Origin: an uncultured delta proteobacterium
GTDB taxonomy: Bacteria > Myxococcota > Myxococcia > SLRQ01
Direction of reading: 5' to 3'
Length of the DNA: 64,000 nucleotides
Assembly: GCA_963727485.1 (NCBI GenBank)
Contig: CAVSGM010000011.1
Location: 160,001-224,000, forward strand
Part shown: in pieces, positions 3 to 61,264 of the stretch
Layout: every line of letters begins with the position of its first letter
Position numbering within the stretch: position 1 is the stretch's first letter
Notes under the pieces: model-generated
Database searches by the model: none
Told to the model about the DNA's origin: nothing
Seen by the model: the letters and a program-made list of their open reading frames with translations, nothing else
Translations under genes and position numbers: made by a program

Positions 3-626
3 CTCGAGGCCACGGCCCCCACGCCGCCCGCACCCGCGCCGCCCGCACCCGCGCCGCCCGTCCTCGCCCCCGTCCCCCTCCGCGTCCTCTCCACCGCCCC
101 GGTCGCCATCGTCGTCCCGGCGGCGGCGGGCGCGCTCTACCTGCCCCTGGCCCTCACCTGGCGCCTCCACCCGGGCCTCGAGCTCCTCGTCGACGGCGCC
201 TTCACCCGGGGCCCTTGGTTGGGCTGCGCCAGCCGGTCCACCGGGGGGTGGCTCTCGGTGGGGCTGGTGCGGATCTCGGCGCGGGGCACCGGGCCCCTGG
301 TGGCGCTGAAGCTCACCGGGCGGGTGTTCGACACCCGCGGCGGGACGGCCAGCGGGTGGTTCGGGTGCAGCAGCGCCGACGTGGCGCTGCTCCAGGGCAC
401 CGACGGCGAGGTCGGCGCCGGCGTGGACCTCGGATGGCGCTTCGCCTGGCGGCGGCTGGTGGTCGAGCCCCGCCTGGGGGTGGGCCTCGCCGTCTGCGCG
501 AACTGCGTCGGCGGCTCGGCGTTCTTCGCGGGACCGGTGGTCCTCGGCGGCGACCGGACGCGCCGGTCCACCCGGGTGACGCTCACCCTGGACCTCGAGC
601 TCCTACGCGTCGGGGTCCGGTTCTGA
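3..626 (+). CDS. 5'-truncated hypothetical protein, probably a small outer-membrane beta-barrel with a Pro-rich linker
   Basis: Frame is open from the window edge (PTPPAPAPPAPAPP...). Alternating hydrophobic strands and a C-terminal ...LRVGVRF with terminal Phe. Confidence 0.55.
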   Translation, partial: LEATAPTPPAPAPPAPAPPVLAPVPLRVLSTAPVAIVVPAAAGALYLPLALTWRLHPGLELLVDGAFTRGPWLGCASRSTGGWLSVGLVRISARGTGPLVALKLTGRVFDTRGGTASGWFGCSSADVALLQGTDGEVGAGVDLGWRFAWRRLVVEPRLGVGLAVCANCVGGSAFFAGPVVLGGDRTRRSTRVTLTLDLELLRVGVRF

Positions 627-1688
627 GGCGGAGCCCCGCGCCGCGCCGCCGCCGGTCCCGGCCCCCACCGCGCGCGCCGGTCCGCGCACCGGGCGCCGGC
701 CCGGGGGTGCGAGGTCGAGGTGGCGGGCGTAGGCACGGTGGACCGCCGCCGCCTCGGCGGCGAGGTCCCGGGCGAGGGGCTCGGGCGCGAGGACGATCAT
801 GGCCGGGCCGAAGGCGCGGATGAAGCCCCGGAGCTCGGGGGTGTCGGTGACCGTGAGCTCGACCAGGGCCGAGCCGTCGGCCCGCCGCTGAAGGCGCTGG
901 GTGGGGTGGAAGGGCGTCTCGGCGAGGACGTCGGCGGCGGCGCTGGAGACCTCGAGGCGCAGGGCCAGGGGCGGGCCGCCGGCGAAGACGCCCAGGGACT
1001 CGCGGAACCCGCTCTCGAGGTTGTGCTCCACCGGCGGCGGCTGGTGCGCCTGGCCCGGGGTGAGGACGCGGATGCGGTCGAGCCGGAGTGCGCGCGGGGT
1101 GCCGTCGAGGTCCTCGGCGACGAGGAGCAGGCCGTGGCGGTGGCGCCGGAGGCCCACGACGAAGACCTCGAGGTCCACGGGGCGCTGGCGGCCGAGGCCC
1201 TGGTAGCGCAGGTGGAGGCTGCGTCCGCTCCGGAGCGACGCGAGGATGTCGGCGAGGTGGGCCTCCCGGGCGGCGGGGTCGTCGGGGCCGTCGGCCGCCG
1301 GCGGGTCGGCGAGGACCGCGGCCACGGCGGCCACCTCGACCCCCGGCATCGTCGCCCGGAGCCGGGCCGCGGCCTCGGCGAGGGAGGCGGCGTAGGGTGC
1401 CGAGGTCTCGAGCTCGGTGGCCGCCATCCACACCGCCATCACCTCGGTGAGGGTCGGGGCTCGGGCGGGCTCCGCCGCCGGTGGGACCTCCAGGCGCCAG
1501 CGGGTGGTCGCCCCCTCCCGCTCGGGGACCAGGGGCAGTCCGGCGTCGCGAAGGGCCCCGAGGTCGCGATAGACGGTGCGCGCCGACACCCCGAGCGCCG
1601 CGGCCAGCTCGGCCGCCGAGGCGCCCCGCCGCCGAGCCTCCAGGTGCTCGACCAGGCGCCACCTTCGCTCACGGGGGTCGGATCGCAT
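603..1688 (-). CDS. WYL-domain transcriptional regulator (HTH_11 + WYL + WCX; YafY/DriD/PafBC-like)
   Basis: N-terminal wHTH AAELAAALGVSARTVYRDLGALRDAG; WYL core LRY...GLLLVA...RALRLDRI; WCX-like FHPTQRL...ELRGFIRAFG...VLAPEPL. ATG at 1688. Confidence 0.9.
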   Translation of the reverse strand: MRSDPRERRWRLVEHLEARRRGASAAELAAALGVSARTVYRDLGALRDAGLPLVPEREGATTRWRLEVPPAAEPARAPTLTEVMAVWMAATELETSAPYAASLAEAAARLRATMPGVEVAAVAAVLADPPAADGPDDPAAREAHLADILASLRSGRSLHLRYQGLGRQRPVDLEVFVVGLRRHRHGLLLVAEDLDGTPRALRLDRIRVLTPGQAHQPPPVEHNLESGFRESLGVFAGGPPLALRLEVSSAAADVLAETPFHPTQRLQRRADGSALVELTVTDTPELRGFIRAFGPAMIVLAPEPLARDLAAEAAAVHRAYARHLDLAPPGRRPVRGPARAVGAGTGGGAARGSASEPDPDA

Positions 1689-1709
1689 CGCACCACCATG
1701 CACCAACCT

Positions 1710-1782: not shown

Positions 1783-2775
1783 ATGCCGAACGTCGCCCTG
1801 CGTCCCAAGACCAACCTCTCGCTCTTCCGCCGAGTGGCCATCGGTACCTGGCACACCGTGGGCGACCCCACCGTCTACGGGAGCATGGACCTGCGCCTGG
1901 ACGAGGCCCTGCGCTACATCGAGGCCTACCGCGACGCCACCGGCCGCCGGCTGACCTTGAGCCACCTGATGGCGAAGGCCGTCGCCGCGGTCTTGAGCGA
2001 GCACCCCGACGCCAACGCCATCCTCCGCTTCAACCGCATCTACCTCCGCGACCAGGTGAAGCTCTTCTTCCAGGTGGCGCTGGAGGATCCCGAGACCGGT
2101 GAGGTCGACCTCTCCGGGGTCACCGTCGAGGACCCGGAGGACAAGACCCTCGGCGAGGTCCTCGACGTCTTCGAGCGCCGGGTGAAGAAGGTGAAGAAGC
2201 AGGAAGGCGACGAGCTCGCCCAGAGCCGGGGGATGTTCCGGTGGATCCCCTCGCTGCTCCTCAACTTCGTGCTCTCGCTCTCCGGCTTCCTCGCCTACAC
2301 CCTCAACCTCGACCTCTCGTCGGTCGGGGTGCCCCGGGACGCCTTCGGGTCGGCGATGATCACCAACATCGGGTCGCTGGGCCTCGAGGAGGCCTACGTG
2401 CCGCTGGTGCCCTACAGCCGGGTGCCCCTGCTCATCGCCATGGGCTCGGTGCGGACGATGCCGGTGGTCGAGGACGGCGAGGTGATCACCGGGAAGGTGA
2501 TGCGGGTCTCGGTGACCTTCGATCACCGGATCCTCGACGGCGCCCACGCCGCGGCCATGGCCAAGACCGTGCGCGCGTGGATGGAGCACCCCTTCGACCA
2601 CTTCGACGCCATCGAGGACGCGGCGGCGGCCTCCGCGGCCCGCGAGGCGCTCCCCGAGGCCGGCGGCGCCGCGCACGCCGCCGCGGACGCCGGCGCCGCC
2701 CGCGATCCCGCGGACGCCGGCGCCGACGCCGCCACCGATCCCGCGGTCCGCCTCGCCGAGGGCGGCGGCGACTGA
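1783..2775 (+). CDS. 2-oxo-acid dehydrogenase E2-like acyltransferase, catalytic domain only
   Basis: ITNIGSLG and FDHRILDG catalytic motif; no lipoyl domain; GGAGG ribosome-binding site before the ATG. Confidence 0.9.
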   Translation: MPNVALRPKTNLSLFRRVAIGTWHTVGDPTVYGSMDLRLDEALRYIEAYRDATGRRLTLSHLMAKAVAAVLSEHPDANAILRFNRIYLRDQVKLFFQVALEDPETGEVDLSGVTVEDPEDKTLGEVLDVFERRVKKVKKQEGDELAQSRGMFRWIPSLLLNFVLSLSGFLAYTLNLDLSSVGVPRDAFGSAMITNIGSLGLEEAYVPLVPYSRVPLLIAMGSVRTMPVVEDGEVITGKVMRVSVTFDHRILDGAHAAAMAKTVRAWMEHPFDHFDAIEDAAAASAAREALPEAGGAAHAAADAGAARDPADAGADAATDPAVRLAEGGGD

Positions 2776-4310
2776 TGCCGATCCCGGCGCCGCGGACCGT
2801 GGTCCTCACCGAGGACCAGCAGGCGGTCGTGGCGCGGTGGCGCGCCGCCCCGGACCGGGCCACCCGGGAACGGATCTACGCCGAGGCGCTGGCCGAGGGC
2901 TACGCCCCGCGCTTCGCCGAGCTGCCCCTCCACGGGGGCGTCGCCGGCCAGCCGAGGCCCCGGGCCCTGGTGAGCCTGGTGGGCCACGCCTGGCAGCCGG
3001 CGGCGCTCATGGCCGCCTGGGTCCGCCCCGAGCGCCTGCTCCTGCTGCGCACCCGGGAGCCCGCCGCCGGCGCCCCCTCGGCCCTGGAGCTGGTCAGCCG
3101 CCTCTCGGGCCTGTCCCTCGACCGCATCGAGCACCAGTGGGTCCTCGGGGGCGGCGAGCTGGCGGTCTACGAGGAGATCCGCGACTTCCTCGCCCGGGGG
3201 CGTCTCAAGCCCGACGAGCTGGCCATCGACGTCACCGGGGGCAAGAAGTCCATGGCGGTGGCGGCGGCGCTCGCGGGCTTCCTCGCCGGGGCGCGGCTGC
3301 TCTACGTCGACTACCTCGAGGTCGACCGGGGGACGCCGGTGCCGGGGACCGAGTACCCGCGGCTCCTGGCGAACCCGCTCGCCATCCTCGGCGAGATCGA
3401 CATCGACCGGATCCGCGAGGCCTTCGACGGGGGCCACTACCTCGACGCCGAGCGCCGCGCCGAGGACCTCGCCCGGCGCCTCTACGAGCCCTGGACCGCC
3501 GAGGCCCTGGGGCTCCTCGCCCGGGGCTACGGCGCCTGGCACCGCTTCGACTTCGAGCGGGCGCGCTCGGCCCTCGCCGAGCTGCGCACCCTCCTCGACG
3601 CCCGGGCGGGCCACGCCGGCGCCGCCTGGGTGGGCCGGGTGCGCCCGGTCCTCGACGGGCACCTCGCCCGCCTCGGCGCCCTCCTCGAGGCCACCGCCAA
3701 GCCCGAGACCGTGGCCGCCGGGATGCCCGGGGTCCTCAACCACCTGGCGGCGTCGGCGCGGGCCCTGGCGCAGGAGGACCTCGACGACGCCACCCTGCTC
3801 CTCTACGCCACGGTGGAGCGCTACGTGGATCTCTGCCTCTGGGTCGACGCCGGCCTCACCGACCGGGACCCGGACTACGGGCGCCTCGAGGGGCGCCTCG
3901 ACCTCGACCGGTACCGCGACCTCGGCAGCCGCCTCTTCGAGGGCCCGGCCCCCGAGCGCCCCCAGGGGCCGCTCCTCTACCTCGCGGCCGTGCGCCTCCT
4001 GGCCGCCCTGGCCCCCGAGCGCCTCCCCGATGGCGATCTCGGCTGGGTGCGGGGCCTGGGACGGATGCGCAACGAGCTGGTCCACGGCCTGGTGCCCACC
4101 CACCCGGGTGCCGGGGAGGTGGCCTCGAAGCTCGGCCGGGTCAAGGGGCTCCTGGCGCCCGCCGCCGGGGGCGAGGCGGCGCTGGAGGCCGAGCTCGCCG
4201 CCCTGCGCTTCCCGGAGATTCTGATCCCGGGCGCCCTCCGGGGCTGCGTCCGCCGGTCCCGGCGCCGGCGTCGACACCAGCCGGCCTTTGGGTGTACCCC
4301 GGAGCCATGA
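2775..4310 (+). CDS. CARF-HEPN protein (TIGR02710/Cas02710, Csm6-like); true stop may be ~4224
   Basis: CARF strand-1 LVSLVGHAWQP and IDVTGGKKSM motif; LLANP...G linker; GYGAWHRFDFERA helical region; HEPN-type RNELVH (RxxxxH). Coupled to the upstream gene by TGATG. Confidence 0.85.
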   Translation: MPIPAPRTVVLTEDQQAVVARWRAAPDRATRERIYAEALAEGYAPRFAELPLHGGVAGQPRPRALVSLVGHAWQPAALMAAWVRPERLLLLRTREPAAGAPSALELVSRLSGLSLDRIEHQWVLGGGELAVYEEIRDFLARGRLKPDELAIDVTGGKKSMAVAAALAGFLAGARLLYVDYLEVDRGTPVPGTEYPRLLANPLAILGEIDIDRIREAFDGGHYLDAERRAEDLARRLYEPWTAEALGLLARGYGAWHRFDFERARSALAELRTLLDARAGHAGAAWVGRVRPVLDGHLARLGALLEATAKPETVAAGMPGVLNHLAASARALAQEDLDDATLLLYATVERYVDLCLWVDAGLTDRDPDYGRLEGRLDLDRYRDLGSRLFEGPAPERPQGPLLYLAAVRLLAALAPERLPDGDLGWVRGLGRMRNELVHGLVPTHPGAGEVASKLGRVKGLLAPAAGGEAALEAELAALRFPEILIPGALRGCVRRSRRRRRHQPAFGCTPEP

Positions 4311-4735
4311 ACGGCACCGCCGAGTGGCTCGTCGATGGGGGCCCGTGGATCTACGCCCTGCTGGTCGTGGGCTTCCCGGTGACCGCCATCGGCGTCGTCG
4401 GCTTCATCGGCGGGCTGATGCTCAAGGACCGCCGGGCCGCCCGCTGGCTCGCCGGGGTGGCGCTGTTGCTGACGGTGATCGTCCTCGGCATCGGCTGGGA
4501 GGCCGGGCGGGTGCAGCTGGTGCGGGGCCACGCGGCGATGAGCCACGCCCTGCCCTCGGACCGGGAGACGGTGCAGGCCGACGCCGACGCCAACGCCCAG
4601 GTGCCCAGGAACCTGGCGGTGCTCCTGGCGCTGATGCCCTTCGGGGCCGCGGTGATGCTCGGGGTCCGGGGGTTCATCGGGTGGGGCGGCGGGGCGAGGT
4701 CGTCGAAGCCCGAGGCGGTCGAGGACGCGGAGTGA
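4307..4735 (+). CDS. Small 3-TM membrane protein (short MotA/TolQ/ExbB-like)
   Basis: GGAG RBS; WLVDGGPWIYALL N-terminus; three hydrophobic segments. Confidence 0.6.
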   Translation: MNGTAEWLVDGGPWIYALLVVGFPVTAIGVVGFIGGLMLKDRRAARWLAGVALLLTVIVLGIGWEAGRVQLVRGHAAMSHALPSDRETVQADADANAQVPRNLAVLLALMPFGAAVMLGVRGFIGWGGGARSSKPEAVEDAE

Positions 4736-4815
4736 GCGACCGGGCGGGTGAGCGGCGCGGGGAACGGGAGCCGGCGTAGGCGCTGCGCCTCGTGGTTCGG
4801 CTGACCTGCGCCGTA

Positions 4816-5282
4816 GCGATGCGCCGCTTGAATCGGCGCACATCGCGAGGCGACGCTGGGCCGACGCCGGACGCTGCCGGCGACACGGCACGGGCGCGCC
4901 CACGGCAGGATGCGGGCGCCGAGTGATCTACCGGCGTTCGCGGGGCGGCCGGCCCTGCGCCACCGGGTGCCTGCACCCCCACGCGGGCGCGCCCGCCGGC
5001 GACCGGCCGCGGGGCCGCCGGTGCGACGCGCCTCTTGAATCGGCGCACATCGCGAGGCGACGCCGGGCCGACGCCGGGCCGACGCCGCACCGACGCCCTC
5101 CGCTGCCGGCGATACGGCACGGGCGCACCCAGGGCGGGATGCAGGCGCCGAGTGATCCACCTCCGCTCGCGCGGCGGCCGGCCCTGCGCCACCGGGTGCC
5201 TGCAGCCCCACGCGGGCGCGCCCGCCGGCGACCGGCCGCGTAGCCGCCGGTGCGACGCGCCGCTTGAATCGGCGCACATCCC
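4816..5282. repeat. Imperfect tandem repeat (periods 207 and 229 bp), each unit starting with a ~31-bp hairpin
   Basis: GCGAYGCGCCKCTTGAATCGGCGCACATC starts at 4816, 5023 and 5252; the intervening ~180-200 bp are also similar to each other. Confidence 0.9.
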
Positions 5283-5323
5283 GGGCAAACCACGCTCCCG
5301 CGGCCCCCGACCCCCTGCGCCTC

Positions 5324-7294
5324 TCAGTGCAGATCGGCAGCCAGGATCGTCCGGAGCGCCGCAGCGGCCGCGGCGTCGTCGCCCTCGCCCCGGGCCGCTG
5401 CGTAGGCCCGCGCCGGCGCCCGGAACCGCGACTCGGGCCCCAGCGGCAGGCGCGACAGGAACCGCCCAAGCCGCGCCTCGAGGTCGGGGGGCAGCACGGC
5501 CGCCGCCCCACCGTCCGCCTCCAGGGCCCGCGCCACCCGCACCGCCGCCACCCGCCCCAGGGCGTGGTCCGTCACCGGCCCCGGGTGCGCCCCGGCCAGC
5601 GCCGCCAGCCGCGCCTCCCACCGGCGCGCCCGGGCCCCGTCGCCGGCCGCGAGGCAGGCCTCCACCGCCCGCGCGCAGGCGCCGGCGTGGGGCCAGGGCC
5701 CGGTGCCGTCGGCGTCGAGGCGGTCGGCCAGCGCGGTGAGCGCCCCGTCGAGGTCCCCGTCCGGCGCCGCGGCCTCCACCCGCAGGGCCTCGTAGGCGAG
5801 GTAGAGCTCGTTGGCCCGGCGCCATCCGTCGCTCATCCCCGGCTCCCGGTCGCTCTCGGCCCGGGCCTCGGCGAGCGCCGCCCGGGCGGCGTCGACGCGC
5901 CCGAGCCGCGCCAGGGCCCCGATGCGGTAGGCGCGGCCGATGTTCGCCTCCCAGGGGGCGGCGTCGGCGAAGCGGGCCAGGGCGTCGTCGAGGCGGACCA
6001 GGGCCTCGGCGTCCCGGCCGGCGTGGGCCTCGACCCGGCCGGCGGTGGAGGCGATGCGCGCGCCCTCCACCGCGTCGGCGGCGGCGTCGGCGGCCGCCTC
6101 GGCCTCGGCGAGGTAGGCCCGGGCCGCCTCGAAGTGGTGCCGGTCGATCATCCCGCTCGCCTCGACGTTCCGGGCCCAGGCGACCAGCGCCGGCGGGGGA
6201 CGGCCCTCGGTGAGGCGGGCGTCGAGGGCGGCGGCGACCTCCGCGGCGGCCTCCGGGCGTCCGGCGTGGGACCGGTAGGCGCACAGGAGGGTGAGCAGGG
6301 CCAGGTGGGCGGTCCACACGGCCACCGGCTCCCGTCCCAGGGCCGTCGCGATCTCGGGCCAGGCCTCGGCGAGGGCCTCGAGGCGGGCGGCGAGCACCGG
6401 CACCGGCACCGCCCGCACCCGGTCGAGCCACCGGGCCTCCTCCACCGCCTCCAGCCACGCCGGGAGGGTCGCCGGGCGGAAGGGCCCGGGGGCCAGGCCC
6501 ACCGCGTCGGCGAGGGCGTCGAGGTCTTCGACGGGGATCACCTCGGGTCCCCCGGGGGGCGAGGGCACGGCGAAGCCCACGGGGACGAAGAGCCGGCGCA
6601 CGCAGGCCCGCTCCCGGTGGAGGCCCACGACCTTGGCGTGGACCCCCCGGCGGGCGCCCTCGGGGAGCGTGAGGCGCCCGGCGTCGTCGAGGTCGCCGGT
6701 GACGGCGAAGCCCGGGTCCAGGGGCACGTCGCTCCAGGCCGAGAGGAGCATCAGGGCGAGCGCGGCGCCCATGGAGCCGCCCTCGACCCGGGGGGCGGCG
6801 GCCGCCGGGAGCTCGTCGAGGACCACCCGGTGCCACCCGAGGCGCGGGGTCAGGGGGCGGGTGCCCCGGCGCCGGGCGGCCCAGGCGAACGCGCGCTCGG
6901 CGGCGGCGTCGGCGGCGGCGTCGGCGGGGGCGGCGCCGGGCCAGAACCGGGGCCACGGCCGCTCGGCGGGGCCGAGGCGCTCGAGGCGCACCCGGAGCAC
7001 GGCGCCCAGGTCGTCGTGGCTGGAGAGCCACCAGGTCGTCCCCGGGGCCGGCACCGGTGGCCGGGTGGCCCGCGCGGGGATGGCGGCGGCGTCGCCGACG
7101 GCGAGCTCGAGGCGGGCGGCGAGGGCGTCCCTGCGCGCCGGGGCGAGGGCGCCGGCGGGGATCGCCCGGGCGGCGTTGACCGCACGCTGGCGCGCAGGAC
7201 CCCGGGCGGGATCCCCGGGGTCCACGAGGCTCTCGAGCCGGCCCAGGGCCTGCTCCAGGGCGAGGACCGGACGCAGGCGCGTGTCGTCGCTCAT
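5324..7294 (-). CDS. AAA-less Lon-type (S16) protease domain fused to a C-terminal TPR-like helical region
   Basis: VEGGSMGAALALMLLSA...AVTGDLDDAGRL...GVHAK matches the Lon DGPSAG...AMTGE...GG..K Ser-Lys dyad pattern; RLFVP and EVIPVEDLDAL follow. Then Ala-rich helical repeats. No Walker A. Confidence 0.8.
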   Translation of the reverse strand: MSDDTRLRPVLALEQALGRLESLVDPGDPARGPARQRAVNAARAIPAGALAPARRDALAARLELAVGDAAAIPARATRPPVPAPGTTWWLSSHDDLGAVLRVRLERLGPAERPWPRFWPGAAPADAAADAAAERAFAWAARRRGTRPLTPRLGWHRVVLDELPAAAAPRVEGGSMGAALALMLLSAWSDVPLDPGFAVTGDLDDAGRLTLPEGARRGVHAKVVGLHRERACVRRLFVPVGFAVPSPPGGPEVIPVEDLDALADAVGLAPGPFRPATLPAWLEAVEEARWLDRVRAVPVPVLAARLEALAEAWPEIATALGREPVAVWTAHLALLTLLCAYRSHAGRPEAAAEVAAALDARLTEGRPPPALVAWARNVEASGMIDRHHFEAARAYLAEAEAAADAAADAVEGARIASTAGRVEAHAGRDAEALVRLDDALARFADAAPWEANIGRAYRIGALARLGRVDAARAALAEARAESDREPGMSDGWRRANELYLAYEALRVEAAAPDGDLDGALTALADRLDADGTGPWPHAGACARAVEACLAAGDGARARRWEARLAALAGAHPGPVTDHALGRVAAVRVARALEADGGAAAVLPPDLEARLGRFLSRLPLGPESRFRAPARAYAAARGEGDDAAAAAALRTILAADLH

Positions 7295-7307
7295 CGGACG
7301 GAGGGCA

Positions 7308-8297
7308 TCATCCCTCGCTGGCGGGCGGCGGGTCGAGGGGCAGGGTCTCCGTCTGCTCGCCGTCGCGGCCCCGCCAGCGGACCGAGAGGGTGTGGGCGCC
7401 GTCGCCGGTGCCCGAAAGCGGCACCCACCACGAGAGGGCCACGTCCGAGCGCTGGGGCGCCGCGGGCCCCGGCGGGTCGAGGGTCACCGAGACCAGGCGC
7501 TCGAAGCGCCCGTCGGCGTCGCGGATCACCAGCCCCGGGGGCGCGTCGTCGTGCTCGGCGAGGCCGTGGGCGTGGACGAGCACCCGGCCGTCGAGGAGCC
7601 GGGCCACCGGGGGCCCGAGCGGCCGCTCGAGGATCCGGGCGAGCTCGGTCTCGGCGTCGGCGCCGTAGTGGAAGGCGACCTCGGCGTCGGCGGCGCGGCG
7701 GGTGAGGGCGAGCGCCATCCGGGCGCCGATCAGCGGTCGGGCGAGCCAGCCGGCCACCGCCTCCCGGTGGGCGGCGAGCAGCAGGGGATCGAGCCACCAC
7801 GCCGGCTGGGCGGCGCGGGCCAGGGCCTCCAGCCAGGGGGCCTCCGGGCCCTCGGGGTCCTCGGCGAGGCCCCGGGCCACCTCGGTGGCGTGCCGGGCGC
7901 CGAGGACGTCGACCTCGCCGGCCCGGGCGAGGAGGGCGCGCTCCCGGGCCGCGGCGCCGATGCCCAGGGCCCACAGCAGGCTCTCGGCGTCGTCCCGGGC
8001 GGCGGCGACGGCGAAGGCCCGCCCGGGGCCGAGGCTGGCGAGCCCCTCGGCGGCGGTCTCCAGGGACCGGTCCGCGGCGGCGGCCACCGCCTCGGCCACC
8101 TCGCCCACCACGGTCTCCCGGAGCCAGGCGTCGAGGCGCCGGGCCAGGCCGTCGACCTCGTCGCTGCGCATGAGCCGGGCGGCGGCGAGGACCGCGACCA
8201 CCGGGTCGGCGCCCGGGTCGGCGAGGGCGTGGGCGAGGGCTTCGGGCAGCCAGTCCGGGAGGACGGCGAGGTCGTCGGAGGTCAGGGGCGCGCGCAT
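7308..8297 (-). CDS. Hypothetical protein, putative anti-sigma factor/protease substrate (helical N-terminus, beta-rich C-terminus)
   Basis: GGAGA RBS before ATG 8297; lies between the sigma and protease genes; motifs RDDAESLLWAL and QPAWWL; no transmembrane segment. Function is inferred from context. Confidence 0.55.
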   Translation of the reverse strand: MRAPLTSDDLAVLPDWLPEALAHALADPGADPVVAVLAAARLMRSDEVDGLARRLDAWLRETVVGEVAEAVAAAADRSLETAAEGLASLGPGRAFAVAAARDDAESLLWALGIGAAARERALLARAGEVDVLGARHATEVARGLAEDPEGPEAPWLEALARAAQPAWWLDPLLLAAHREAVAGWLARPLIGARMALALTRRAADAEVAFHYGADAETELARILERPLGPPVARLLDGRVLVHAHGLAEHDDAPPGLVIRDADGRFERLVSVTLDPPGPAAPQRSDVALSWWVPLSGTGDGAHTLSVRWRGRDGEQTETLPLDPPPASEG

Positions 8298-8403
8298 CGG
8301 TCGGTCTCCAGGGCGACGGCGACCCCCGGCCGGCGAGTGGTCGGGCGCGGGTCTGGCGGGGCCGCCGTGTGGCGCCGACGCCCCCCTCGCGCGGCATCTG
8401 ACA

Positions 8404-9099
8404 TCAGGACTCGTCCTCCTCGCAGCCCACCAGGCGCACCAGGAGATCCGCCTCCGCCGGGGTGATCTCCCCGGTCTCGAGGAGGGCCTGCACCGCCTCG
8501 CACCCGGCGACCTTCCCCCGGCGTCGGTACTGGTAGATCCGGTCCCGGGCCCGGCGCAGCGCCACCTTGTCGTCCGGGTCGTCGGGGGCGGCCCACCGGG
8601 CGATCTGGGCGTCGATGTCGGTGCCGACGATCCGGGCCTCGAGGTGGACCCGGAGGTTGTGGCGGACCATCTCCAGGTCCCGCTCCCGGTGCAGGCGGGC
8701 GAGGGCCCCCTCGAGGCGGTCGAGGAGGGTCTCCATGTCCTGGCCGGCCAGGGGGTCGGGGGTGGCCGGGGCCCTTTGTTGCGGTGCATCATCCAGGTCC
8801 ACCAGGCGTCGCTCCCGGCGGATGACGTCGAGGACGTAGCGCTGGAGGATCCGGCTGCACCAGGCCCGGGCGGCGCGGTCGTCGTCGCCCCGGAACCGGG
8901 CCCGGCCCAGGCTCGCCTTGAGGACCACCTTCTGGATCGCCTCGTCGATGAGATCGTCCGAGGCCCGGTAGAACCGGCGGCGCACCACCCCCGGCGCGAA
9001 GTGCCGCAGCTCCTGGTAGAGGTGGCTGGCGGCGCGCTCACGGTCCATGCGGCTGGTCGCGTCCGAGGCGAGGATCTGGAGCCACTGGCACAGGCTCAT
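8404..9099 (-). CDS. Divergent ECF-type RNA polymerase sigma factor
   Basis: Sigma region-2 pattern DDLIDEAIQKVVLK...RFRG...AWCSRILQRYVLDVIRRERR; atypical region 4 (IDAQIA...RARDRIYQYRRRG). Confidence 0.7.
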   Translation of the reverse strand: MSLCQWLQILASDATSRMDRERAASHLYQELRHFAPGVVRRRFYRASDDLIDEAIQKVVLKASLGRARFRGDDDRAARAWCSRILQRYVLDVIRRERRLVDLDDAPQQRAPATPDPLAGQDMETLLDRLEGALARLHRERDLEMVRHNLRVHLEARIVGTDIDAQIARWAAPDDPDDKVALRRARDRIYQYRRRGKVAGCEAVQALLETGEITPAEADLLVRLVGCEEDES

Positions 9100-16443: not shown

Positions 16444-17274
16444 GTGAGCGAGGACTTCAGAGCCAGATACGGGCCGTGGGCCCTGGTCGCCGGAGCGTCG
16501 GAGGGCCTCGGCGAGGCGTTCGCCGCCGGGATCGCCGCCCGGGGGGTGAACGTCGCCATGGTGGCGCGCCGGGCCGACACGCTGGAGCGCACCGCGGCGC
16601 GCGTGGCCGAGGCCCACGGGGTCGAGACCCGGGCGCTTTGCGCCGACCTCTCCGACCCACGGGCCCCGGCGCGGCTCCTCGACGCGGTGGCGGAGCTCGA
16701 CCTCGGGCTCTTCGTCTACAACGCGGCGCTGTCGGTGCCGGGGCCGTACCTCGACGTCGACGCCGGCGTCCACCTCGCCGCCATCCAGACCAACTGCGCC
16801 AGCCCGGCGGCGCTCGCCCACGGCCTCGGGCGCCGCCTGCGAGACCGGGGGCGCGGCGGGATCCTGCTGGTGTCGTCGCTCTCGGCCTTCTACGGGGCCG
16901 GCTACCTGGCGACCTACGCGGCGACCAAGGCCTTCGGGCTGACCCTCGCCGAGGGGCTCTGGGCCGAGCTCTCGGACGCGGGGGTGGACGTGCTCGCGAC
17001 CTGCGCCGGCTCGACCCTCACCCCGGGCTACGCGGCGCGGGCCCCGGCGCGGCTGCCGAGGCTGGCGCCGGCCCCGATGGACCCGGCCGCGGTGGCCGAG
17101 GACGCCCTGCACCAGCTCGGCCGCCGCGGGCCGCGCGTCATCCCCGGGCGAGCCAACCGCGTGGCCAGCTTCCTCCTGCGCGCCTTCGTGCCGCGGCGCC
17201 GCGCCATCCGCATCATGACCGAGGCCGGCCGGGCCGTAGCCGAGGCGGAAGGCCGCCGGGAGGGCGACGGCTGA
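16444..17274 (+). CDS. Short-chain dehydrogenase/reductase
   Basis: YGPWALVAGASEGLG, YNAA, YAATK. Confidence 0.95.
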   Translation: MSEDFRARYGPWALVAGASEGLGEAFAAGIAARGVNVAMVARRADTLERTAARVAEAHGVETRALCADLSDPRAPARLLDAVAELDLGLFVYNAALSVPGPYLDVDAGVHLAAIQTNCASPAALAHGLGRRLRDRGRGGILLVSSLSAFYGAGYLATYAATKAFGLTLAEGLWAELSDAGVDVLATCAGSTLTPGYAARAPARLPRLAPAPMDPAAVAEDALHQLGRRGPRVIPGRANRVASFLLRAFVPRRRAIRIMTEAGRAVAEAEGRREGDG

Positions 17275-17336
17275 TCGGGGCCAGGTCCGCCGCTCGACAG
17301 CGAGCCCGGCTTCCCCTTGGGTGGAGGCCTTCCAAG

Positions 17337-17397
17337 GGTGTAGGAAGCATGAACGCCCTTGTCGGACCTACCCCGGGGCGCCCCAAGGCCTATATCC
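17337..17397 (+). repeat. ~61-bp direct repeat, copy 1
   Basis: GGTGTAGGAAGCATGA...TCGGAC.TA...CCCCAAGGCCTATATCC, also present at 21387-21448. Confidence 0.85.
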
Positions 17398-17698
17398 TAT
17401 CGTAGAATCGGGGTCTGCGACGGAGCGCCGGGTTCCAAATTCTGATTCAGGTCATTCAAGGTCGGCGTCTGTAACAATCTCAAAATGCTTCGACGACGTA
17501 CGCATTTGCATTACCGATCCGTCGTTTGAAGGTTTGCTGGTTGAGGTGTTTGACCGGGTTGGGGGTAGCGCCATAGGCAATGCAGGCATTACGTCGCACA
17601 TGCCTGGCTCTCTCGATGACCTCGCAACGCTAACGAGCAGTGCGCGAAACGCTCAAAGATGAGCCTGTTGTGAGCGTTGAGAAAAAAGGAATAGTGTT

Positions 17699-19279
17699 GT
17701 GAAACCGAATATTGAAATAGCAAGCAAAGCCCGTTTTGAGAAGCGCAATAGTAGAAACTGCGACCCCGTGATTCCAGGTGAGCGTGTTCCTGCACAACGA
17801 TTGCCTCGAAGCTGTTGTCACCTGTTTCTGATAGCAGTGTTGCTCGGATCTGTGTGCTGCGTGCTGCCGTCGACAGCCATGGCGAAGGAACCTATCGGCA
17901 GAACCGGCGAAGTGCAGAAGCTGACCGCCCCTACCAAAGGAGAACTCTCCTCTGCGCCCACAAAGGTAGACGTAAAACCCGTCGCGCACGATGAAGAGAT
18001 CCGAAAGCGACTCCAGCGCGTTCTGGAAGCTACCGACTGGTTTACTGACCCACAAGTCAAGGTCGAAGAAGGCGTTGTCTTTCTTAATGGCAAGGTGAAG
18101 TCCGATGAGTTGAAGAAATGGGCCGGCGATCTGGCACACAACACTCAGGACGTTGTCGCCGTGGTTAACCGACTGGAGGTGACCCAGCAGTCGGTATGGG
18201 ATTTCCACCATGCATGGAGCGGCATGCTGGCATTTTGGCGCGACTTCATCCGTGCGATTCCTTTCGTTATTTTAGGGCTGCTCATCCTGGCGCTGTCGGT
18301 GGGCAGTGCCCTGCTGACAGCTCGCGGCATCCAGGCGGTGCTGCGCTCGCGGGTTCGAAACAAACTCCTGAAAAATGTAATCGCGCGTACCGTGGGCGGG
18401 CTCGTTGTACTCTGTGGTGTCTACCTTATTCTGAGGGTCTCTGGCCTGACGCAACTGGCGTTGACGCTGGTCGGCGGCACCGGTCTGATCGGCCTGATCG
18501 TGGGTATCGCATTCCGGGATATCACCGAAAACTTCCTGTCCAGCATCTTCCTCGGTATACAGCCGCCGTTTGAGACCGGTGACCTGGTCGAGATAACCGG
18601 CGTGACCGGGTATGTGCAGCAATTGAACATGCGCACCACGATCTTGATGACCCTTGATGGAAATCTCGTGCAGATCCCCAACGCCAGTGTTTACAAGAGC
18701 AACCTCAGCAACTTCACCACCAACGCCAACCGGTGCGAGAATTTTGTCGTCGGCATTGGCTATGACGATACGATCAGTGAGGCCCAGGAGATTGCCCGGC
18801 AGGTTCTGGCAGATCACCCGGCCGTTCTGAACGACCCAGAGCCCGCGGTATTAGCTGACAGTCTGGGGAAATCTACAGTGAACCTGCGCGTCTATTTTTG
18901 GCTCAATGGCCGCGAGTACAGTTGGTTGAAGGTGCGCTCTTCGGTGATCCGGCAGGTAAAACGCGCTTTTCAGGAACATGACATTTGGATGCCCGACGAG
19001 GCCCGAGAGGTTGTCTTTCCACAAGGCATTCCTGTCACCATGCTAGAGCGAATCCCGACAGATGAGCATGCTGCAACGCCGGGGAAACAACCCCCCACCG
19101 AACCGCGGCACAAAGAAGTCGATCTGGCGTCGACGAAAGCGGAAGCCGGCTTATACAGCGAGGCCACCGTCATCAAGGAACAGGCGCGGCAGGCACAACC
19201 GCTGAAGGAAGGGGAAAATCTCTTGCCGGATGCTTCCGCAACCGTCGCACAGAGACAGACGAAGGACGCAAGTAGATAA
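17699..19279 (+). CDS. Mechanosensitive channel MscS with an N-terminal BON domain, in a lower-GC insert (start uncertain)
   Basis: VKVEEGVVFLNG...VVAVVNRLEV (BON); GIAFRDITENF...PFETGDLVEI...MRTTILMTLDGNLVQIPN (MscS). Confidence 0.9.
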   Translation: MKPNIEIASKARFEKRNSRNCDPVIPGERVPAQRLPRSCCHLFLIAVLLGSVCCVLPSTAMAKEPIGRTGEVQKLTAPTKGELSSAPTKVDVKPVAHDEEIRKRLQRVLEATDWFTDPQVKVEEGVVFLNGKVKSDELKKWAGDLAHNTQDVVAVVNRLEVTQQSVWDFHHAWSGMLAFWRDFIRAIPFVILGLLILALSVGSALLTARGIQAVLRSRVRNKLLKNVIARTVGGLVVLCGVYLILRVSGLTQLALTLVGGTGLIGLIVGIAFRDITENFLSSIFLGIQPPFETGDLVEITGVTGYVQQLNMRTTILMTLDGNLVQIPNASVYKSNLSNFTTNANRCENFVVGIGYDDTISEAQEIARQVLADHPAVLNDPEPAVLADSLGKSTVNLRVYFWLNGREYSWLKVRSSVIRQVKRAFQEHDIWMPDEAREVVFPQGIPVTMLERIPTDEHAATPGKQPPTEPRHKEVDLASTKAEAGLYSEATVIKEQARQAQPLKEGENLLPDASATVAQRQTKDASR

Positions 19280-19359
19280 TGGAACAGACATGAGTCTATT
19301 TCGTCAGCTATGATCTCCACGCAGCCGTCTGGATCTACGTCAATCACCACTACTTTATG

Positions 19360-20676
19360 GGCTCTCCTGACGCGTATGTGGGCGTAGGAGAGGCAGCAGC
19401 GTGTAGGCGCGGGTGGGCGAGAACGCCGAGAAGAGCTCCTCCGCCCGCCAGAATAGCATAGAAGCACGCACGGGACAGTGCTTTGCTGTGGGTTGAGAGA
19501 AGTAAGAGCAGGCAGGAGGATAAGTGCGCATCACGACTGTACTGGATGGGGGCTCATAGGAAGCATCTAGCTTCGCGTCACTAAGGTGGTGTTCGAGGAG
19601 GACGCGGTGGTGGTAGCAGTCGCCCCGCTTGGCGCCGCCGCGCTGTGGCGTCTGCGGCAAGCGGGCCCCCGGCTACGACGAGGACGGACGCCGAAGATGG
19701 ACGCACCTGCGCTGGGACAGAAACAGCGTGGTCCTCGAGGCGGCGGTCCGACGGGTAAGCTGCGCGACCTGCGGCGTGAGTACCGAGCTGGTGCGCTGGG
19801 ACGAGCACGGCAGCACCTTCACAGGGGACTCCGAGGAGATGGTCGCCTACCTGGCGGTGACTATGACAGGACGGCGGTGACGAGGCGACGGGCATCGCCT
19901 GGCGCACGTGGGCGCTATCGTGGAGCGGGTCGTGGCGAGGCACAGGGATCGGCGATGAAGGAGGAGCTGCAAGAGGGATGCGGCATAGACGAGATCGGCT
20001 ACGGAAGCGGCACAACTACGTCACGATAGTCGTGGACCACGACAGCAGCCGCATCGAAGAGGACACCATTGACAAGTCGGAGCCTTCACCAAGGCGACCA
20101 AGGCGCGGCTTCCGAACGCCACGACAGTCTTGGACTGCTTCCACGTGCAGCGCCTGATGACGAAAACATCGTCGATGCGGTGAGGTGCGACGAGGTGGGG
20201 GAGCTCAAAGGCACCGAGCAAGCCAAGGCAATCAAGGGCAGCAGTTACGCGCTCTTGAAGAGCGCTTGGAACCTGAACAAGGTGGGAGCATCAACAACTG
20301 GCGGAGGTGCAACGGAACAACAAGCAGATCTACCGCGCACACCTGCTCAAGAAGACTCTGGCCCAGGGGCCGACTAAGGAGCAGTGGCGGGTAGAACGCG
20401 CACTTGCGGACTGGTTGCAGTGGGCGTGTCGGTAGAGGCTCGAGCAGGTGACAAAGGCAGCGCGAACGATAAGCAAGCACCTGCAAGGCATCCTCGCGTA
20501 CGTGAAGCTGCGGCTCAACAACGGGGTCGTGGAAGGTATCAACAACCGGATCCGCATGATCACACGCAGGGCCTTTGGCTTTCGAAGCCACGGCGGCTCA
20601 TCGCTATGATCTTCCTGTGCTGCGGCAGCATCACTCTCGACCACCGCTCACGGCACACATAGATGTAAGGAATCTA
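19360..20676 (+). mobile_element. Degenerate ISL3-family insertion sequence (transposase pseudogene)
   Basis: Fragments CGVCG...RRVSCATCG (zinc finger), GIDE, FHV, YALLK, NGVVEGINNRIRMITRRAFGFR. Left end GGCTCTCCTGACGCGTATGTGGG; degenerate inverted partner at 20654-20676. Confidence 0.85.
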
Positions 20677-20920
20677 ACTTCTGCAGGGCAGCGAGAGCAT
20701 CCGCTACGAGGGGAAACTGGTGGTACAGTTAGGTTAGTAAAGCATCTCGAACGGTTCACGGCTGATGGGTTCGATAAGCGCGGTAATCGGGAGCGTTCTG
20801 GGAAGGTTGAGGGCGTGAGCGCAGCAGAACGACGGCCTCGATGGAATCGAAGGTGGGCCATTCGCACTCCCCATGGGGGTGTCACTCGCCACACGAATCA
20901 CTCGATCCGCCTGGTTTGGT

Positions 20921-21376
20921 CTAGGCTCCGCGCAGCAGCCGGCTCAGCTCGCGGTCGAGGGCCGCCGCGAAGGTCTGCCGGTCCTTGGGACCGAAGGCCT
21001 TTGGCCCGCCGGTCACCACCCCGCCCTCGCGGAGCTCGTGCATGAAGTCGCGGATGGAGCGGCGCTCGTCCACGTTGTCCTCGGTGAAGGTCTCGCCGCG
21101 CGGCCCGAGGGTGACGACCCCCCTGTTCACGAGCGCCGAGGCGAGGGGGATGTCCTGGGTCACCGCCAGGTCGCCGGGCTCGGCGGCCTCGGCGATGTGG
21201 GCGTCGGCGACGTCGAGGCCGGCGCCGACGAGGACCGTCGAGAGGAGCTCGGAGCGGGGCAGGCTCAAGGGCCGGTTGGCCACGAACACCGCCGGGACGC
21301 GGAGCCGCGCGACGGCCCGGATGACGATGTCCCTCACGGGGCCGGGGCAGGCGTCGGCGTCGATCCAGATGCGCAT
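20921..21376 (-). CDS. yaiI: YaiI/YqxD (UPF0178) family protein
   Basis: MRIWIDADACP...VTQDIPLA...PRGE. Confidence 0.95.
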   Translation of the reverse strand: MRIWIDADACPGPVRDIVIRAVARLRVPAVFVANRPLSLPRSELLSTVLVGAGLDVADAHIAEAAEPGDLAVTQDIPLASALVNRGVVTLGPRGETFTEDNVDERRSIRDFMHELREGGVVTGGPKAFGPKDRQTFAAALDRELSRLLRGA

Positions 21377-56711: not shown

Positions 56712-56820
56712 TGGAGGCTCCTTGATCCGGTGAGAAGGCGGGGTAGCCCTGCGTCGGTTACTGGCGGGCGCGGGGAATCCCCAACAGTTCCTCCCCTGCG
56801 GGAAGCGTGTCAAGGACGAG

Positions 56821-57460
56821 CTAGGAGGCCGCCATGGACCCCAGCAGCTCGCTGGGCTTCTTGGCCCACATGACCACCAGCTCGTCGCGGGCGCGGGTCA
56901 TGGCGACGTAGAGGAGCTGGCGCTCGCGGGCGGTGGCGGCGGCGCGCAGGGCCGGGTCGCGCTCGCGCTTCACCGCGGCGGGGAGCGGCAGGAAGCCGCG
57001 GCTCACGCTGGCGAGGAGCACGGCCTTGAACTCGAGGCCCTTGGCGCCGTGCATGGTGCCGAAGCCGATGCCCTCGGCGTCGTCGTCGCCCTTGGCGAGG
57101 CGGCGGCAGGGCAGGCCCGCGGCCTCGGCGGCGGCGCGCAGGGCGTCGAGGCGATTGGTGGTCCGGGCGAAGACGGCGATGGCCCCGGGCTCGAGGCCGT
57201 CTGCGAGCCAGGCCTGGAGCTGCGCGATCATGCCGGCGGCCTCGGCCTCCTGGGTGTCGAAGCCGCGGATCACGGGCTCGGGCCCCTTGAGCAGGCTGCG
57301 GGCGTGGACGCGGCGCTCGGTGCCGCCGTCGAGGTCGTCGACCTCGTCGCCGAGGACCCGGTCGGCGGCGCGGCGGATCTCCTCGGTGGTGCGGTAGTTG
57401 AGGCGCAGCACGCGGGAGCAGCCGCGGAAGTCGAGGCCGAGGGCGGTGACACGGCCTTGG
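56821..57460 (-). pseudogene. 3' fragment of a UvrD-like SF1 helicase
   Basis: LRLNYRTTEEI, TMHGAKGLEF, LLYVAMTRARD; Walker motifs absent; the sequence changes to lower-GC DNA at ~57460. Confidence 0.85.
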
Positions 57461-57645
57461 TCTGCTCCACACCGGACTGCGCAGCTCCTACAGGTTTCTT
57501 GCGCTCCGAAAGCGGTTGCTCACGGAGAATGCGCCCACCGCGAGTACATACCTGAAACTCTCGCCTCAAGGACCTTTACGTCGGTGGTAAGCTTCAGGAG
57601 CCATGGTGTAGCACGATACGGGTGGTCGGAGAGGAGCGGGGATAG

Positions 57646-58797
57646 GTGCATCGACGGCTTCAGGTGGAGATCGATGGGGCGTCGTGGACGGACAACCATC
57701 AGACAGTGCCACCTAGGCTTGCTGGCGCAGCCGGGTATCGATGGGTAAGCGTCGGGGAGATGCTTCTCCACACGGCTCTCCGGACCCGTCCCCCAATGCG
57801 TTCCGGGTACCACCTTTCCGACTTTTGGGCTTGGCTTCGGTATCTACCGGCAGTCTCGGATCAGGATGGCTTGGCCCTTCGCTTGGGTTGGCAAGAACTT
57901 GACCCGCATCAGAAGACAATTCTGTCAGATGACTGGGGCGTCGGCTTCACTAGCGGACTGATTGGTGAGCTGCTCGATGTAAGAGCTTGGGCCGACACGC
58001 GGCACTTAGCGAACGTTGCCGCTCCAAGCATCGTCAACATCATAGGGACTGGCAAGCGAGGGCCAAACAAGTCTCCGGACTTCATTGGCGTGACTGCCCA
58101 GCTTGAGGTCATAGTGCTTGAGAGCAAGGGGACACAGTCAAACCGTGACTACCTCCGACGGCAGATGGACGGGGGTGTTTCCCAGAAAGCGTCCGTCCAG
58201 TTCACGGGATTCGCCGCCGACCAAAGTCTCGTAGCGGGGCTATATGTGCCACTTGAAGGAGGAGACGAAGAAGCGTTGATCTCCGTGCGTGACCCTCCGG
58301 TGTTGCGACGCGGTCCCGGACCTGATGGACTACGCGAGGCGCTGGCTGCCGCGATATTGCGATTTGAGGTTGGCAGCTTCCTGCAGATGATGGGCTTTAC
58401 GGAATTGGGCTGGATGCTTGCGACTGGGTTGGGTCCGGAGCCAAGCGGGGGAACAGATTGGTACACGGAGCTTGAACGGCAGCTGGTCGACCATTCGCGG
58501 GCGAACGAGTCATACCTGGGAGCGGAGCGCGCCTTTGCTCTGCCGGTGAGCCAACAAGACGGTGTCCGGGCTCGCCGAGCTGTTGTTGGTCGATTGATGC
58601 TTGCGCGCTCCCTGCTTCAGGAGATGGCAAAGCTGGGGGCGGATGCCGTATTCCGGGAACGTGCCCGTAGTCTCGGGCAGCGGTACCCATCTGTGAGTTC
58701 GGGCAATCTCCTACACGAAGAGCCGCAGAAGCCTGGCCCTGAACGGTACGCTTACGAAGCCCCAAGTGGAGTCAGAGTGGAGGCGGAGTGGCTATAG
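57646..58797 (+). CDS. PD-(D/E)XK nuclease-like protein (lower GC)
   Basis: SDDWGVG...KSPDFIG...VLESKGTQS...QK. Confidence 0.7.
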   Translation: MHRRLQVEIDGASWTDNHQTVPPRLAGAAGYRWVSVGEMLLHTALRTRPPMRSGYHLSDFWAWLRYLPAVSDQDGLALRLGWQELDPHQKTILSDDWGVGFTSGLIGELLDVRAWADTRHLANVAAPSIVNIIGTGKRGPNKSPDFIGVTAQLEVIVLESKGTQSNRDYLRRQMDGGVSQKASVQFTGFAADQSLVAGLYVPLEGGDEEALISVRDPPVLRRGPGPDGLREALAAAILRFEVGSFLQMMGFTELGWMLATGLGPEPSGGTDWYTELERQLVDHSRANESYLGAERAFALPVSQQDGVRARRAVVGRLMLARSLLQEMAKLGADAVFRERARSLGQRYPSVSSGNLLHEEPQKPGPERYAYEAPSGVRVEAEWL

Positions 58798-58848
58798 GCG
58801 GGGAGCCACCTATCTTGGCATCATCTCCTGCGCCGCCGAGCGTGAGTC

Positions 58849-59708
58849 ATGACGAACTATGAACTTCAGGTCCAACTGGTCGAGAAGGCTCTCGAGGACA
58901 TCGGCAAGCCCGAGGTTACTAGTGCGGAGATCCGTACTTGGCTTGAAGGGCACGAGGCACCTTCGTGGTCCCAGCTTGAGCGAAGCTTCTCAACGTACCT
59001 GACGATTGCGGTTCAGGATCCTCACAATCGGATTGAACGAACCCCGAATCGGTATACGTAACTCTCTGAGGAGCGCTCCACTACAGGAGAGTGCCGCGCC
59101 GGCCTCAACAGAGGTGCCCAGTGAGACTGAAGCCGCCCAACGCCAGGCTCGAGAGGTTCACCTCTACCCGGCCCTCGCGAACTGGATGAGAGCCAGGGGG
59201 TTCAGGGCTCGCGTCACAGGCGAAGTTCGGGCCGGTGGAACGTGGGGCAATCCGGACGTTACGGGGCTTAAGATCGTGGAGGGTTTCCTCTCGCAGAGGT
59301 CGATCGAGATTGTAACAATTGAAGCTAAACTCGGCCTCGCCTATTGGCGGCACTACTTCTTCGAGGCCGTTGCTCACAAGCGCTTTTCCAATCGTGCGTA
59401 TTTCTCCTTTGCGCTTGGCTCGGATGAGCCCTCGGTCGCGGACGTACCGGATGCAGAAGCACTCCGAGAGTACGCAGAGAAGTACGGTGTCGGAGTTCTG
59501 TTGTGTTCCTTCCCGCGAAGACATACGAGACACTGGCAACCTCCGCCTATTTCTAGGGTTTTCGCTAGCACTGGACGAGATACGAGTAGAGGAGCTCTGG
59601 CCAGCCCTCTACGAGAGGGTAACCCCCGCGACACGGGTGTGGTACTTGGGCGATGTGCTTTGTCTCGCGGACGACGCGCAAGTGTACGACTTCGATGATG
59701 GGGACTAG
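58849..59708 (+). CDS. HTH + restriction-endonuclease-like protein (HrgA/COG2958-like; frameshifts ~59055, ~59500)
   Basis: N-terminal wHTH-like helices; E..LYP.L; WGNPDVTG...TIEAK...FFEAVAH.RFSNRAY...YGVGV. Confidence 0.7.
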
Positions 59709-61262: not shown

Positions 61263-61264
61263 GG

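Follow-up and report, generated by a model that had tools for sequence, protein, structure and literature searches.

A Csm6 clade with an eroded ligand pocket and conserved RNase residues in genomes in which no type III CRISPR system was detected

Sequence and structure comparisons were used to characterize a gene for a Csm6-type CARF-HEPN protein that is located near the left end of a 64,000-nucleotide stretch of DNA from an uncultured delta proteobacterium (contig CAVSGM010000011.1, positions 160,001 to 224,000; the entire stretch is referred to as the window). Judged from sequence, the protein belongs to a single clade in which the sensor for cyclic tetra-adenylate (cA4) is eroded and the catalytic residues are retained, a feature that had been missed in a preliminary description of the same DNA. 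Since the pocket is eroded, the residues for catalysis are kept and Cas10 was not detected, this Csm6 is likely to be an RNase that is uncoupled from CRISPR signalling. The reading that we favor, with confidence somewhat above even, is that of a domesticated Csm6 RNase that became independent of cyclic oligoadenylate (cOA) and CRISPR signalling. The architecture, the residue pattern, the single clade, the missing type III genes and the conserved chromosomal position were established by direct observation.

The open reading frame (ORF) as assembled (positions 2775 to 4310, forward strand) encodes 511 amino acids and contains both motifs on which the assignment to the Csm6-type CARF-HEPN proteins had been based, DVTGGKKSM at residues 152-160 and RNELVH at residues 432-437. 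This assignment was borne out by family profiles. The protein matched the PADLOC profile CARF1--CARF_HEPN (E 7e-40), TIGR02710 (77.6 bits, below the curated cut-off of 83.9, E 8.8e-22) and Pfam Csm6_6H, the latter with a score above the family cut-off, and chance is excluded by a wide margin for these matches. A protein search yielded 109 homologues, most of them full length and 39-50% identical, and a profile of 106 homologues matched Thermus thermophilus Csm6 (TtCsm6) over positions 12-464 (E 8e-26). The AlphaFold model reached a mean predicted local distance difference test score of 94.5, and its top eight Foldseek matches were all TtCsm6 (8jbb, E 9e-18). The gene product is a full-length TtCsm6 homologue with CARF-6H-HEPN architecture. 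The gene had been described as ending at position 4310, but its stop codon is probably located at positions 4222-4224, as a 93%-identical protein of the same sequence cluster stops after 482 amino acids and a contig of 176 bases from an independent run (depth 2.4, single contig) lacks base 4219, which places the stop there. The 29-residue tail up to position 4310 probably stems from an indel in the assembly, most likely one nucleotide inserted at 4219, and the gene would span positions 2775 to 4224 (forward strand, approximately 482 amino acids). In the same assembly, cas3 and cas5/6 of the type I-G locus are likewise split between frames. Promoter, terminator and Rfam scans did not yield a match.

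The residues of TtCsm6 were mapped onto the protein via a HMMER alignment, and ten pocket positions were taken from a published study (PMC10897365). CARF motif I (positions 2982-2990, forward strand) reads G70-H71-A72 in place of TtCsm6 G58-T59-S60, and the hydroxyls of T59 and S60, which position cA4, are absent; the S60 position is occupied by serine in 98 of the 99 homologues outside the clade. CARF motif II (D152-V-T154-G-G156-K-K158, equivalent to TtCsm6 D131-K137; positions 3228-3248, forward strand) is intact and conforms to the general CARF pattern (D/N)-X-(S/T)-X3-(R/K), which is no longer present in three of the seven clade members. The mobile loop of the CARF domain (Y177-E193; positions 3303-3353, forward strand) is two residues shorter and carries V183 for Y167 and G186 for R172, whereas tyrosine and arginine are present in all 99 other homologues. 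The equivalents of T81, T133, G135, K137, Y161 and E179 are kept in this copy, and those of S60, Y167 and R172 are alanine, valine and glycine. The seven clade members retain 7, 7, 7, 7, 4, 6 and 2 of the ten pocket positions (40 of 70 cells); among the other 99 homologues, 92 retain ten and 7 retain nine, and nine or ten are also found in all 55 non-clade proteins whose loci were examined. An S72A change is common to five clade members, and the proteins encoded in the genomes G002 and G003 lost the equivalent of K137. In TtCsm6, the substitutions T59A/S60A, K137A, Y167A and R172A each abolish the cA4-activated RNase, according to the same study (PMC10897365).

The HEPN domain presents a different picture. 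The pattern R-X4-6-H with an adjacent asparagine and an upstream glutamate is present in the form of E348 (positions 3816-3818, forward strand), the equivalent of TtCsm6 E332, and the motif R432-N433-E-L-V-H437 (positions 4068-4085, forward strand). The complete catalytic set (TtCsm6 E332/R415/N416/H422) is retained in all seven clade members (28 of 28 cells). An earlier study reports that these four residues are required for the basal RNase activity of TtCsm6 and that the CARF domain is dispensable for it (PMC4748810). A two-residue deletion shortened the spacing to R-X4-H in all seven clade members, while R-X6-H is found in all 99 others. Columns that are at least 95% conserved outside the clade are still invariant within it at 9 of 44 positions in the CARF domain and at 12 of 19 positions in the HEPN domain. 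In addition, 23 residues are invariant in the clade and rare outside, among them R92 next to the pocket and, in the HEPN domain, D335-L-D-D338 and H443; this suggests ongoing selection rather than decay.

The clade comprises this protein, the database proteins P0002-P0005 and the proteins of G002 and G003, and it falls on one side of a branch with a Shimodaira-Hasegawa-like approximate likelihood ratio test (SH-aLRT) value of 99 in a tree of 82 rows. An SH-aLRT value of 100 was obtained for six clade members in a tree of 38 rows under a mixture model. The clade branch is nested among CRISPR-linked proteins. No further members were found with a clade profile, none in a search of 20 genomes of another class, which lacked a positive control, and no phage-borne copies were found in viral contigs.

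The relatives of the clade show what the family normally does. Of 92 loci examined, 75 matched with at least 250 bits. In the retrieved flanks of these 75, a type III gene was found 57 times and cas10 37 times, duplicates included; the type III profiles were built from these same loci and named by Pfam. After the removal of duplicates, a type III gene was found near 41 of 57 distinct proteins with matches of at least 400 amino acids. For five of the non-clade, pocket-intact loci that had no flanking type III gene, the whole genomes were searched as a control, and cas10 was present elsewhere in four of them. As 41 of 57 proteins are linked to type III genes and four of five others have cas10 elsewhere, the Csm6 family at large is an ordinary type III effector that at times acts in trans. 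A survey of the class detected the family in only five of 368 genomes, namely G020 and G356, both with cas10, and the three clade genomes (G002, G003 and the host genome G000). One pocket-intact homologue (L013:1706-18061) has on one side an operon of the cyclic-oligonucleotide-based anti-phage signalling system (CBASS), approximately 2.7 kb away, and on the other a cas6-like gene accompanied by an array. The cyclase of this operon has the same best PADLOC model as that of G000, and the L013 genome also contains cas10. A gene for a protein with tetratricopeptide repeats (TPRs) and an AEP-TOTE primase was observed directly adjacent to or near CRISPR-linked homologues, beside cas1, at seven loci (L018, L020, L025, L029, L054, L055 and L056).

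The window is part of contig C11 of an assembly of 5.55 Mb that is 93% complete (G000). The only CRISPR array and the cas genes of this assembly, cas1 and cas2 included, belong to a type I-G locus on contig C2 (G000:C2:1679000-1692300, L004), which also includes a WYL gene and a Cas4-Cas1 fusion and contains 34 repeats. No cas gene, array or cGAS/DncV-like nucleotidyltransferase (CD-NTase) was present in the window or in the 20 kb to its left. The gene had been called an orphan with neither a cyclase nor a CRISPR locus nearby; this holds for the window and its left flank but not genome-wide, as two CD-NTases are encoded on contig C3 in addition to the type I-G system on C2. A cas operon just left of the window had been named as the finding that would turn the protein into a conventional effector, and a leucyl aminopeptidase gene was found there instead. 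The proposal that the protein responds in trans to a type III system elsewhere was not supported. Cas10 was not found in G000 with TIGR02577, PF22335, profiles from the neighbours of the homologues and a 15-sequence Cas10 alignment, nor was it found in G002 or G003, and RAMP genes likewise went undetected in all three genomes (93, 95 and 98% complete). Weak palm-domain matches in G002 and G003 were rejected as Cas10, as they are short GGDEF-type proteins of 266-382 amino acids. mCpol was absent from all three clade genomes searched. Because motif I and the mobile loop deviate and the linkage to Cas10 is missing, the protein would not be classed as a functioning cA4-activated Csm6, despite its membership in the TtCsm6 family.

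The two CD-NTases belong to a CBASS island (G000:C3:719700-725100; L194:8768-14093) that further encodes E1-E2, JAB and HNH-SAVED proteins. The island looks like a recent arrival because of its lower GC content (62-68% versus 73%), its own SAVED effector, several frameshifts and an adjacent transposase-like ORF. DncV-like and SMODS searches did not detect a cyclase in four other genomes of the host's family, G002 and G003 included. The Csm6-type protein does not itself qualify as a CBASS effector, as its operon contains no CD-NTase and the cyclases on C3 have their own HNH-SAVED effector.

The chromosomal position of the gene is conserved. A gene for a stand-alone 2-oxoacid-dehydrogenase-type acyltransferase (positions 1783-2775, forward strand) directly precedes it wherever the genomic context is known (three genomes); its stop codon overlaps the Csm6 start here (TGATG), and gaps of 10-14 bp are found in G002 and G003, which are 95% and 98% complete and represent different genera. 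In all three genera the Csm6 gene faces a triad of genes for a sigma factor, a protein termed X and a Lon-TPR protein, with spacers of 63 bp (G002), 1.1 kb and 6.1 kb; in G003, five unrelated genes lie in between. The other two of the five family genomes, G001 and G004, contain neither Csm6 nor the triad nor this acyltransferase. Among the three genera, orthologues of Csm6 are 42-50% identical, those of the triad 45-59% and those of the acyltransferase 59-65%. Since the identities of Csm6 resemble those of its neighbours (45-65%), the block is consistent with long vertical descent, and the linkage of Csm6 and triad is one ancestral event. The acyltransferase gene, found in 90 of 151 class genomes, is most plausibly the site where the Csm6 gene landed. 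A role as dedicated partner or antitoxin is disfavoured by this wide distribution in comparison with that of the Csm6 family (five of 368). The left flank with the leucyl aminopeptidase gene is syntenic with G002. A divergent gene for an HTH-WYL-WCX regulator (positions 603-1700, reverse strand) is not located at this place in G002 or G003, and a gene for a predicted membrane protein of 142 amino acids without a family (positions 4307-4735, forward strand) was not found in either of these loci. The intergenic region at positions 4809-5306 (no strand assigned) contains two direct repeat copies of 209 nt that are 89% alike. This repeat (approximately 210-230 nt, two to three copies) recurs in weaker form on contigs C1 and C3 without an Rfam match and is possibly a dispersed non-coding element. 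Further along the window, a region of low GC content (56-62%) at positions 17000-21000 contains a long ORF (17681-19276) without a PADLOC match, and a lower-GC island at positions 56800-62700 encodes a UvrD-like helicase and an AAA-ATPase pair. The motifs of this pair suggest a resemblance to McrB/McrC.

The triad is encoded on the reverse strand and consists of a 656-amino-acid protein with a Lon protease domain and TPRs (positions 5324-7294), protein X of 329 amino acids with a predicted helical N-domain and an Ig-like C-domain (positions 7308-8297) and a sigma factor of 231 amino acids that resembles the extracytoplasmic function (ECF) type (positions 8404-9099). The Ser-Lys dyad of the Lon domain (S174 and K221) is invariant in all 23 aligned homologues, and the profile matched solved Lon domains (E 1e-21). 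No SAVED or CARF model matched the Lon-TPR protein, and TPR_12 matches were obtained in homologues. Sigma70_r2 matched the sigma factor with E 7e-5, slightly under the cut-off; the G180 homologue scored above it. Protein X had no match in Pfam, PADLOC or the Atlas, and its model (pLDDT 75) gave a best Z of 7.2 to unrelated folds; its position makes it a candidate anti-sigma factor and protease substrate. The triad was found in six genomes of the class (window positions 5324-9099 on the reverse strand, L097, L098, L133:7462-11174, L134:7792-12498 and L192:8551-13227). A phylum-wide search recovered mostly ordinary Lon proteases, and the only new full-length matches were those in G180 and G245. 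Three of the six genomes (G147, G180 and G245) have the triad without this Csm6 family, and the triad therefore does not need Csm6. The triads of G180 and G245 contain one extra gene and are less similar (protein X 18-22% identical), and those of all three genomes lie beside genes for an AAA-ATPase, WYL-like or DUF6119 proteins and other defence-like genes.

We infer the RNase activity, its regulation and its biological role from these observations. The ancestor of the three genera likely acquired a Csm6 gene from a type III locus, and this gene would have landed behind the acyltransferase gene, with which it is probably co-expressed. Without Cas10, selection on the cA4 pocket would have been relaxed, and the CARF domain may have been retained mainly as a scaffold for dimerization, a dimer being presumed by analogy with TtCsm6. 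The HEPN dimer would then cut single-stranded RNA, either slowly and independently of a ligand or under a control other than cOA, and its likeliest role would be growth arrest in response to stress or phages. Several points weigh against this reading. TtCsm6, from which the mutant data originate, is only approximately 24% identical to this protein, and the T59 position is leucine, phenylalanine or methionine in the wider family. With the equivalents of T81, T133, G135, K137, Y161 and E179 in place, cyclic nucleotide binding by this copy is conceivable, and R185, one residue off, might stand in for the lost R172. Conversely, the enzyme may have been inactivated when its HEPN switch loop lost two residues. 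The residue counts do not represent independent events, as the seven clade sequences form 6 independent clusters; both trees were quick searches without bootstrap; and genomic context was available for three of the seven sequences, all from incomplete assemblies.

It is also possible, though improbable, that sensing was lost only in the relatives and that this copy continues to respond to a cyclic oligonucleotide supplied in trans, either from the CBASS cyclases on C3 or from a type III system missing from the assembly. Motif II is intact, 7 of 10 pocket positions are kept, the genome is 93% complete and two CD-NTases, which also weigh against a domesticated RNase, are encoded on C3 with E1-E2, JAB and HNH-SAVED proteins. 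The pocket-intact homologue of L013 has a CBASS operon approximately 2.7 kb away, with a cyclase that shares its best PADLOC model with that of G000, but the L013 genome also has cas10. The island on C3 has its own SAVED effector and appears recent, the DncV-like and SMODS searches remained blank in G002 and G003, and the S72A change in five clade members indicates that erosion started earlier. Another reading, which we regard as unlikely, is that the gene was left over from a lost type III system and is slowly decaying, or that its product binds RNA as a scaffold but is catalytically silent. The G003 copy, with its long branch, a pocket of 2/10 and the loss of approximately 40 N-terminal residues and of the mobile loop, would fit such a relic, as would the lack of the Csm6 family in two of five genomes of the host's family. 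On the other hand, open full-length frames with 42-50% identity persist in three genera, the catalytic residues are present in all seven members, and the clade-specific invariants D335-L-D-D338 and H443 indicate selection.

The remaining alternative involves the triad. The pairing with the sigma/Lon operon suggested in the preliminary description was confirmed insofar as the linkage is found in all three family genomes that have the gene, but the triads without it in G147, G180 and G245 speak against an obligate pair. The more specific proposal, that Csm6 supplies the nucleotide-sensing arm of the protease, is unlikely because such triads exist and because G002, in which the genes are 63 bp apart, and G003 lack the lysine needed for cA4. 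In the reverse arrangement, rewiring would have made the RNase an output of the sigma/X/Lon-TPR module, switched on by protease or sigma factor instead of cOA. The linkage in three genera despite reshuffled flanking genes, the absence of both Csm6 and triad from the two other family genomes, the intact Lon dyad and a gene content like that of CalpL-CalpT-CalpS speak for this idea. It is nevertheless doubtful. A single ancestral event permits no statistical test, the genes are convergent and form separate operons with five unrelated genes in between in G003, the triad occurs without the Csm6 family in G147, G180 and G245, and the region as a whole may simply be absent from G001 and G004, which also lack the acyltransferase. 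We likewise give little credence to the still more elaborate version in which a type III RNase without cOA sensor and with a shortened HEPN loop is the output of an undescribed sigma/anti-sigma/Lon-TPR cascade, a protein-triggered circuit of the CalpL kind. A domesticated, uncoupled RNase stays the preferred explanation. The small size of the clade, the uncultured hosts and an activity that is predicted only limit the importance of the finding. In the literature searched, neither a Csm6 clade with an eroded sensor nor the sigma/X/Lon-TPR triad was found to be described; the 2020 CARF classification, which lay outside this search, may cover solo CARF1 proteins.

Comparison with known systems places both elements of the locus. 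CalpL-CalpT-CalpS shares with the triad an adjacent ECF-like sigma factor, a middle gene and a stand-alone Lon domain with a Ser-Lys dyad. The triad differs in the TPRs behind the Lon domain and in the lack of a SAVED fusion and a type III locus, and no clear structural match was obtained for protein X (best Z 7.2). By analogy, the triad may be regarded as a counterpart of CalpL-CalpT-CalpS that is free of CRISPR and in which TPRs replace SAVED. The type III-E cluster Csx29-Csx30-CASP-sigma similarly combines a TPR-bearing protease, a candidate anti-sigma substrate and a sigma factor, but its protease is of the CHAT and not the Lon type, and neither Cas7-11 nor another RAMP gene was detected in the genomes described here. 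TtCsm6 (PDB 5FSH, 8JBB and 8JH1) and the present protein have in common the full-length CARF-6H-HEPN architecture, motif II, the equivalents of T81, Y161 and E179 and the catalytic E-R-N-H set. They differ in motif I (G-T-S versus G-H-A), in the mobile loop, which is two residues shorter here and lacks Y167 and R172, in the HEPN spacing (X6 versus X4) and in a genome in which no type III system was found, and the K137 equivalent is lost or replaced in four of the seven clade members (one conservative, K to R). The CRISPR-linked members of the same 490-amino-acid family (99 homologues, 39-47% identical) are of equal length and fold, and the clade is nested inside them, but they keep nine or ten of ten pocket residues, and among the 55 distinct proteins from loci outside the clade, 41 are flanked by a type III gene within the retrieved sequence. 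The seven sequences provide a natural series in which the pocket declines from 7 to 2 of 10 positions at constant catalytic residues, and this series makes testable both the route to a ligand-independent Csm6 and the effect of the change from R-X6-H to R-X4-H on the allosteric switch. The loss of the cyclase activity of Cas10 was reported to accompany the loss of genes for cOA-sensing effectors (PMC12669027); in the clade described here, by contrast, the effector outlasted the system in three genera, and the part that decayed is the sensor.

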